A stretch of DNA of 11,368 nt from a virus (lineage: Duplodnaviria > Heunggongvirae > Uroviricota > Caudoviricetes), in the IMG/VR virus record IMGVR_UViG_2671180821_000007. The stretch is one strand, 5' to 3'. Positions 2,564-2,896 of the stretch are shown here, piece after piece (the stretch's first letter is position 1; each line of letters starts with the position of its first letter). The translations under genes and the position numbers were made by a program. The notes under the pieces were generated by a model that saw only the letters and a list, made by a program, of their open reading frames with translations, had not been told where the DNA came from and searched no databases.

Positions 2564-2760
2564 AAGTCTGCCTCCGTTATGATTAACGGGCATCATTATT
2601 GATCGATAAAACTGGTAAATAAATCATTTTCTATCTAAAAATCAGATTATGTGTTTTCTGATTTTTGTCATACCAGCAAAAGAATTGACTAATTATTGCC
2701 ACGCCAGCACAATTAAGACTCATCATTTCGGTAGTGGCAGTATCCTTTGTCGCTGACAAA

Positions 2761-2796
2761 GCGCCTCCGGTGGCACCATCGGGGCGCTTTTTTTTG
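2761..2796 (+). terminator. plus-strand rho-independent terminator in an intergenic region with no plus-strand gene
   Basis: GCGCC TCCGGTGGCACCATCGG GGCGC stem-loop followed by T9 (2788..2796), then a second GCGCC plus T6. On the minus strand the hairpin is followed only by TTTGTC. Confidence 0.55.
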
Positions 2797-2896
2797 CGCC
2801 TGTTTTTTGTAAATGCTTTCGGGAACGTTCCGGCGTCGAACAAAAAACAACCTAATTCGACACTAAAAATTTTTATTTTGCCATATATCAATAACT

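Follow-up and report, generated by a model that had tools for sequence, protein, structure and literature searches.

A conserved antisense terminator candidate at the junction of the cos site and the capsid module in a phage-inducible chromosomal island

The GC-rich hairpin at positions 2761-2787 of the DNA analysed here, together with the run of eight thymines that follows it, has every sequence property of a Rho-independent terminator of plus-strand transcription, and we consider the terminator real, with termination as such deduced from these properties. The window, that is, the whole stretch of 11,368 nt under analysis, is by its gene content a decayed Gram-negative phage-inducible chromosomal island (PICI). 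The hairpin lies inside the 468-nt gap that separates the SSB gene from a 64-aa ORF, as do the promoter candidate and the palindrome reported in a preliminary description of this DNA. We tentatively favour the explanation that the hairpin ends a short divergent transcription unit and insulates the cos site and the SSB/replication genes at a seam between PICI modules; in our assessment, this reading falls somewhat short of being probable.

The gene layout was read from annotated E. coli relatives, which are 88% identical to the window around the hairpin, and from Pfam. Nearly all real genes of the window lie on the minus strand, and the landmarks are as follows.

10130-11368: integrase (int)
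9073-9770: IS1 copy, between alpA and int
8734-9030: AlpA
5537-7084: N-terminal part of a D5-type primase
4277-5548: IS3-family element that interrupts the primase, 99% identical to copies in Stx phages
4000-4296: C-terminal fragment of the primase
3809-3985: iteron cluster, direct and inverted GGTGAACAGT, downstream of the primase gene
3032-3454: SSB
2369-2563, minus strand: first gene of the head operon, encoding a 64-aa protein (phrog_4934), with the ribosome-binding site GGAGG at 2575-2571
505-2372, minus strand: ClpP-protease/major-capsid fusion, after the 64-aa ORF

The set consisting of int, alpA, the D5-type primase, SSB and the ClpP/capsid fusion is the same in annotated E. coli islands, and the window shows the features by which PICIs are recognized, namely int, alpA, pri, an iteron-type ori, unidirectional genes, a length of about 10 kb without the IS elements, and a capsid gene. 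The position and form of the GGTGAACAGT iterons are those expected of a PICI replication origin. Comparison of the 64-aa protein with Pfam and the PDB gave no match.

The island in the window looks defective, given the frameshift in the capsid gene, the primase split by an IS element and the IS1 copy near alpA. Relative to an intact 629-aa E. coli homologue, the protease/capsid gene has a 13-nt deletion at about position 1309 that splits it into two frames (1227-2372 and 505-1263). The deletion is not a read error because four IMG/VR contigs encode an identical 381-aa product (100% identity), and the gene in the window is probably a pseudogene. Elsewhere, an E. coli copy of the island adjoins tRNA-Pro and yejO, and the copy in O157:H7 Z1836 (4852-17404 of the locus) is integrated within terL of a prophage; this prophage has a matching cos site and a homologous protease/capsid gene. 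To judge from this layout, the O157:H7 Z1836 copy is in a helper-embedded configuration, an arrangement that has been described for PICIs such as 11capE (PMC10111431).

Two overlapping terminator-like structures on the plus strand make up the element at the centre of this analysis.

2761-2787, plus strand: main GC-rich hairpin with the stem GCGCC.CCGGUG/CAUCGGGGCGC and the loop GCAC, followed by T8 at 2788-2795
2783-2800, plus strand: second terminator-like unit, overlapping the first, GGCGC-T8-GCGCC, then TG and T6 (2803-2808), dG about -11 kcal/mol

The preliminary description had reported a rightward terminator composed of a GC-rich hairpin and T9; the hairpin and its orientation hold, whereas the run of thymines is T8, the sole T run of at least eight in the window. 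The second unit had been overlooked. It is kept in relatives, among which the T runs vary in length (T6-T8 and T6-T7). The main stem comprises 11-12 bp and closes a loop of 4 nt (7 nt in the E. coli allele), with a dG of -22 kcal/mol on the plus strand and -18 kcal/mol on the minus strand. Taken by itself, the stem loses 4-6 kcal/mol of stability on the minus strand, where its G-U pairs turn into C-A mismatches, and the flanks of the stem on that strand are A8 before it and only UUUG after it (UUUUAC in the E. coli allele). The 82-nt plus-strand RNA spanning 2715-2796 folds at -32.3 kcal/mol (z = -4.7, with 0 of 200 shuffles as good), compared to -21.3 kcal/mol (z = -1.5) for its minus-strand counterpart; in the E. 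coli allele, the respective values are -30.9 kcal/mol (z = -4.6) and -26.3 kcal/mol (z = -3.5).

Of 5,426 complete E. coli genomes, 141 carry the element; most of these are STEC, and none has an annotated feature under it. It was also detected in 37 IMG/VR contigs. All these copies represent only two alleles, the window type (W) and the E. coli type (E), of one narrow PICI family. Protein- and pattern-anchored scans of IMG/VR for further alleles yielded the same two, and a protein-anchored scan with one genome per species recovered only distant islands, from which the element is absent. The stem is identical between W and E at 22 of 22 nucleotides, with GCAC versus AACAGCA in the loop, and an extra G converts a bulged U to a U-G pair. 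The divergence of W and E at 4-fold degenerate sites amounts to 13% for the SSB and capsid genes and 32% for the small ORF; the stem is therefore conserved beyond the neutral expectation. A comparison of conservation and structure across relatives had been proposed as a check on the hairpin; in this comparison, the hairpin is conserved, with a stem that is invariant between the alleles and kept in the 141 E. coli genomes. The stem never varies and shows no covariation, so that its conservation could reflect a constraint on the DNA instead of the RNA. As a separate observation, the divergence between the alleles is a mosaic, about 32% at the 4-fold sites of the small ORF and across 2657-2760 compared to 13% in the flanking SSB and capsid genes, which suggests an older or exchanged central block.

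The preliminary description presented the surroundings of the hairpin as an intergenic region with no plus-strand gene. The stretch indeed has no conserved plus-strand ORF, but it is far from empty: the minus strand holds the SSB terminator, the cos site and the likely capsid promoter. On the right side of the hairpin, and at the far end of the capsid module, we delineated the following features.

2994-3020, minus strand: intrinsic terminator of the SSB/replication operon, GCCGGAGCAATCCGGC followed by T6, dG -10.4 kcal/mol, present in all relatives
2947-2993, minus strand: cosQ/cosN-like core of cos1, reading ...CCTGGTGGGGGTGGCCTGTCCACG/GGGCGGGCGGTT/CGCGG
2838-2946, minus strand: cosB-like segment with homology to helper phages
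2822-2831: perfect 10-bp palindrome GGAACGTTCC, located within about 11 nt that are inserted in comparison with the phage leader
372-500: second cos-like copy, 71% identical to 2889-3017 over 129 nt, with cosQ/cosN conserved

When window positions 2597-3031 were compared with phage genomes using BLAST, the matches were confined to 2838-2998, with identities of 74-91%, and came from the lambdoid phages 1720a-02 (90.7% identity across this segment), CP-1639, mEp460 and phi458 and from Stx phages. The matching phage DNA sits between the lysis genes and terS, the small terminase gene, and the mEp460_4F5 record begins at the equivalent of window position 2965. The minus-strand sequence CGGGTCCT..GGTG...ACG/GGGCGG..CGCGG aligns with lambda, 1720a-02, mEp460 and phi458 in the cosQ/cosN pattern, with the lambda-like 12-mer of cos1 at about 2960-2949. 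The phage-like position and the alignment with the lambda cosQ/cosN identify 2838-2998 as the cos site of the island, which is, as far as the alignments indicate, a lambda-type site homologous to those of helper phages in both sequence and position, and was apparently copied from Stx-type lambdoid helpers. The capsid module is flanked by two direct cos copies (372-500 and 2838-2998). Cleavage and packaging by the helper terminase have so far been demonstrated only in the related island EcCICFT073 (PMC6092414). In pairwise alignment, weaker homology to the phage terS leader extends to about 2798 and stops at CAGG, at the foot of the hairpin, where the phage terS ribosome-binding site would begin.

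Packaging redirection of the Rpp type was defined by an rpp gene of 135-153 aa with a winged HTH located directly after cos, together with a non-phage cosB. The island departs from this scheme on both counts, with a phage-like cosB and a post-cos gene of 64 aa that is not rpp. PICIs with cosB regions that differ from those of their helpers are known (PMC6739421, PMC9026076).

The palindrome is present at 2822-2831, exactly as first described, but its proposed role as a protein-binding site finds no favour in the comparisons. The window contains 8 perfect 10-bp palindromes, compared to 10.8 +/- 3.0 in shuffled sequences; the dyad is broken in relatives, with 9 of 29 distinct ones having GGAACGCTCC without a compensating change; and the palindrome arises from the insertion of about 11 nt in the phage-derived leader. 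By these counts, it is no more than chance. The 64-aa product of the small ORF was considered as a palindrome-binding protein and set aside, with no relative in Pfam or the PDB.

On the left side of the hairpin, two divergent promoter candidates flank an inverted repeat.

2623-2595, minus strand: capsid-operon promoter candidate, -35 TTTATT (2623-2618), 17 nt, -10 AATAAT (2600-2595)
2637-2666: AT-rich inverted repeat AAAAATCAGA-N10-TCTGATTTTT, between the divergent promoters and centred at about -61 of the capsid promoter
2685-2713, plus strand: sigma-70-like promoter candidate, TTGACT (2685-2690), 17 nt, CACAAT (2708-2713), matching at 9 of 12 positions
2715-2795, plus strand: predicted non-coding transcript of about 78 nt, with hairpin 1 between a 5' tail (about 17 nt) and the terminator hairpin

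A roughly 55-nt element (2594-2649, minus strand), with the core TTTAyTTACCACTTTTATCGATCAATnAT of about 30 nt, is kept upstream of the small ORF. The core recurs in all the PICI families recovered, including those with unrelated flanks or no cos1, and from this conservation and its position, it is likely to be a capsid-operon promoter of an activator-type or activator-dependent kind. The promoter-proximal half of the AT-rich inverted repeat belongs to this conserved cross-family element, and the repeat may be an operator or an activator site. In sibling PICI families, with capsid proteins 55-61% identical to that of the window, a terminator is located between cos1 and the conserved promoter element; this terminator is in the sense orientation and resembles the SSB terminator. 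In islands that lack cos1, the SSB terminator abuts the conserved promoter element directly. Given that sibling terminators occupy the same slot, a terminator at this location is thus a recurring design, and it is the antisense orientation and the adjacent plus-strand promoter that are, in the families compared, peculiar to the PICI family of the window.

The plus-strand promoter candidate stands where the preliminary description had placed it, and TTGAC, -11A and -7T are kept in both alleles, but the match alone is no better than chance, with 13 promoter-like sites matching at 9 of 12 positions in the window versus 13.3 +/- 4.6 expected. The E. coli allele has TTGACG-17-CAGTAT or CAATAT, that is, TTGAC and CA..AT (-11A/-7T) stay the same even though the alleles differ by 31% across this segment. 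Because the -35 TTGAC and the -11A/-7T survive in both diverged alleles, a plus-strand RNA of about 78 nt, transcribed divergently from the capsid promoter, is a fair candidate and, we believe, a plausible one. The upstream frame, initially listed as 37 codons long and lacking a ribosome-binding site, was rightly not treated as a gene; it has 35 codons counted from 2649 and about 17 in relatives. The predicted RNA is non-coding, to judge from the E. coli allele, where this frame shrinks to about 17 codons, and from the varying length of the T runs. Coding potential was considered on both strands and dismissed, the short frames not being conserved.

The fold with two hairpins and a U tail is predicted alike for the W and E alleles, although hairpin 1 by itself is not significant (z about -1.2). 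The RNA body (2714-2760) is 66% identical between W and E, which is approximately the neutral rate, and the conserved segment UCCUUUGUCG at 2743-2752 is the sole long segment common to the bodies of both alleles. Within the E allele, 2714-2787 is the least variable part, with variation in 2 of 74 columns versus 30 of 206 in the flanks. A search of Rfam 15 with the predicted RNA produced no match at the gathering threshold, and the best sub-threshold matches scored 20-23 bits against cut-offs of 43-55. A weak match to STnc130 was rejected as chance since that sRNA is a Salmonella core-genome locus next to dmsA.

Under the explanation that we tentatively favour, the region 2600-2835 would be a seam, with the phage-derived cos site on the right and the island's own capsid promoter on the left. 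The terminator, backed by the small hairpin with T6, points against all island genes, and would close a very short transcription unit that starts from TTGAC-17-CAnnAT, back to back with the capsid promoter. It would stop divergent or antisense transcription, coming from this promoter or from the left end of the island, before such transcription reached cos, SSB and the replication genes. The strong stem flanked by A8 and T3-4 probably also attenuates sense read-through past the SSB terminator and cos, so that transcription of the capsid operon would continue to rely on the operon's own promoter; a partial sense block is likely because the minus strand has A8 before the stem and UUUG or UUUUAC after it. 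Promoter activity, termination and the insulating role are all inferred from sequence here, and it is assumed that cos gains from being protected against antisense transcription. The earlier suggestion that the hairpin insulates the head operon has the geometry reversed: this operon (2563 to 505, minus strand) is upstream of the terminator with respect to plus-strand transcription, so only cos and the SSB/replication genes, on the right side, can be shielded. Two observations sit uneasily with insulation. The placement of T8 on the antisense strand would be odd if sense read-through were the main need, given that the sibling families use a sense terminator, and pure insulation does not explain the low variability of the RNA body, relative to its flanks, within the E allele (2 of 74 versus 30 of 206 columns).

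A more consequential but improbable alternative is that the RNA of about 78 nt is a trans-acting satellite sRNA that pairs with the SD of the helper protease/capsid gene and lowers helper capsid synthesis. The segment (C)UCCUUUGUCG(U), located in the loop of hairpin 1 and its 3' arm, would pair with the SD and the 5' part would span the GUG start, whereas the island's capsid gene would escape through its different ribosome-binding site. Helper-type phages have a GTG start after AAAGGAGG, 45 nt upstream of the ATG annotated in several of them (1720a-02 18700-18751), and because this annotated ATG is absent in mEp460 and mEp213, the conserved GTG is almost certainly the start of the protease/capsid gene in helper-type lambdoid phages. 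When diverged helper-type phages are aligned, the presumed target is an invariant AAAGGAGG-N5-GTG at the real start of the helper gene. The E allele is perfectly complementary over 12 nt to ACGACAAAGGAG at 18740-18751 of phage 1720a-02, the longest perfect match in this phage, and the match to ACGACAAAGGAG also occurs in the prophage that hosts the embedded island (3204-3213 of the O157:H7 Z1836 locus); the W allele has a 10-nt match to the same site. The predicted gain from cofolding is -21 kcal/mol with the helper site versus -5 to -8 kcal/mol with the island's ribosome-binding sites, and joint scoring of the two alleles puts the site first among the windows of the late-mRNA strand. A functional RNA is also in line with what both alleles share, namely the promoter, the two-hairpin fold and the terminator with its long U tail, and with the status of the RNA region as the least variable intergenic part within the E. 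coli allele. Against this, the control strand gives an equal or better joint score (z = -7.1 versus -6.85), several unrelated windows outscore the site for each allele taken singly, and the similarity at the DNA level is not significant (38% of shuffles equal). Moreover, the anti-SD-like CUCCUU easily fits strong ribosome-binding sites, and we put the chance probability, post hoc, at about 0.01-0.05; the divergence of the RNA body between the alleles is 34%, close to the neutral 32% at small-ORF 4-fold sites; hairpin 1 alone falls short of significance (z about -1.2); and other PICI families have no counterpart. The fuller version of this reading, in which the anti-SD segment of the satellite sRNA would block translation of the helper protease/capsid gene and the two alleles, deeply diverged yet each conserved internally, would be specificity variants, we consider very unlikely. 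If true, it would amount to RNA-based interference with the helper, with the satellite capsid made from a different ribosome-binding site. A wider search for trans-acting targets in the island and phage 1720a-02 was abandoned, its energies being dominated by long loopy chance duplexes and the control strand scoring equally. In addition, the 5' part of the E-allele RNA is complementary at 16 of 17 positions to coding sequence within a minor tail protein gene (1720a-02 15038-15055); this match is away from a translation start, is not common to the W allele and is probably due to chance. An origin of the segment as a relic of the helper portal/capsid junction was rejected as well, the local alignment not being significant, with 38% of shuffles as good.

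The remaining alternatives dispense with the RNA. It is conceivable, albeit with a slight probability, that the hairpin region acts as DNA, that is, as a satellite-specific extension of cosB that is bound or bent during terminase assembly, with the GCGCC/GGCGC/GCGCC repeats, the A/T tracts and the palindrome as its components, analogous to the altered cosB of EcCICFT073. The region is located 165-200 bp from cosN on the cosB side, where lambda has R1 and a long inverted repeat before Nu1; positions 2788-2831 are 92-100% identical between the alleles and the stem arms are invariant, even though 2761-2787 as a whole is 78% identical owing to the different loop; and PICIs with a cosB unlike that of their helpers are known (PMC6739421, PMC9026076). 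Yet the island has kept a phage-type cosB (90%) and has no Rpp-like gene next to cos, so that no new specificity site is needed. Helper phages, in which terS starts at this place, have no equivalent sequence, the palindrome is not kept as a dyad, and the G-U pairs and T8 confer a clear strand bias for which a DNA site has no need. It is rather unlikely, but deserves more weight, that the element has no present function and is a leftover terminator with a fortuitous promoter at a cos/island recombination joint in a young family. The hairpin is found exactly where the phage homology stops, there are no more than two alleles, both from a single narrow PICI family, the RNA body evolves nearly neutrally between them, and the island in the window is decaying, with its 13-nt frameshift deletion in the capsid gene and its IS-split primase. 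Such a relic is hard to reconcile with 0 changes in 22 stem nucleotides against 13-32% at neutral sites, with T runs kept in every copy, and with the dip in diversity that the E. coli allele shows across 2714-2787.

Thus, both the island and its cos site are of a known kind, and the element is best filed as an intrinsic terminator at a PICI module junction, one that possibly delimits a small RNA. A terminator at a PICI module boundary is ordinary. The gain is mostly one of annotation for a common but poorly described, STEC-associated satellite family, for which we provide cos1/cos2, a likely capsid promoter and the helper capsid start; the significance would be greater should the short plus-strand RNA prove to be made and to affect the helper. 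In the literature that we searched, no small RNA or terminator is described in PICI packaging regions, and no regulatory RNA in the packaging/head module of Gram-negative PICIs. The accessible parts of the EcCICFT073 papers (PMC6092414, PMC6739421, PMC9026076) mention no terminator or small RNA at this position, and the terminator/promoter element of the SSB-capsid gap is not described in PMC10111431. The interference mechanisms covered in the papers that we consulted, Rpp and capsid-size redirection, are protein-based.

Several known systems share features with the element and its island. Bidirectional intrinsic terminators occur between convergent transcription units. Like these, the element combines a strong GC stem with flanking A and T tracts and is situated between opposed sources of transcription, but it is very asymmetric, with T8 followed by T6 on one strand, compared to only T3-4 on the opposite strand. 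Another parallel involves short phage or satellite RNAs with their own promoter and terminator, such as the lambda oop RNA of 77 nt. The P4 CI RNA is a satellite regulatory RNA of this kind, as summarized in PMC10111431. The predicted RNA of about 78 nt would likewise have its own sigma-70-type promoter and intrinsic terminator, and is encoded by a mobile element beside a regulatory region. It differs from oop and CI RNA, with which it has no sequence or Rfam relationship, in being placed in the packaging/head module, whereas those RNAs belong to immunity or early regions.

At the level of the whole island, the helper-embedded PICIs of the 11capE type (PMC10111431) belong to the same island family, whereas the copy in the window and those at yejO/tRNA-Pro are chromosomal. 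EcCICFT073 (PMC6092414) is an island with the same int-alpA-pri-ori organization and a capsid gene, and the cos1/cos2 pair of EcCICFT073 is matched here by the two lambda-like cos copies around the capsid module; in both islands, the cosQ/cosN parts resemble those of the helper. The differences lie in what adjoins these parts. EcCICFT073 (PMC6739421, PMC9026076) is unlike the window island, in which cosB is phage-like and about 90% identical to that of the Stx-type phage 1720a-02. Where EcCICFT073 has rpp after cos, the window island has about 240 nt of island-specific DNA with the antisense terminator and, beyond it, the promoter, the 64-aa ORF and the protease/capsid fusion.
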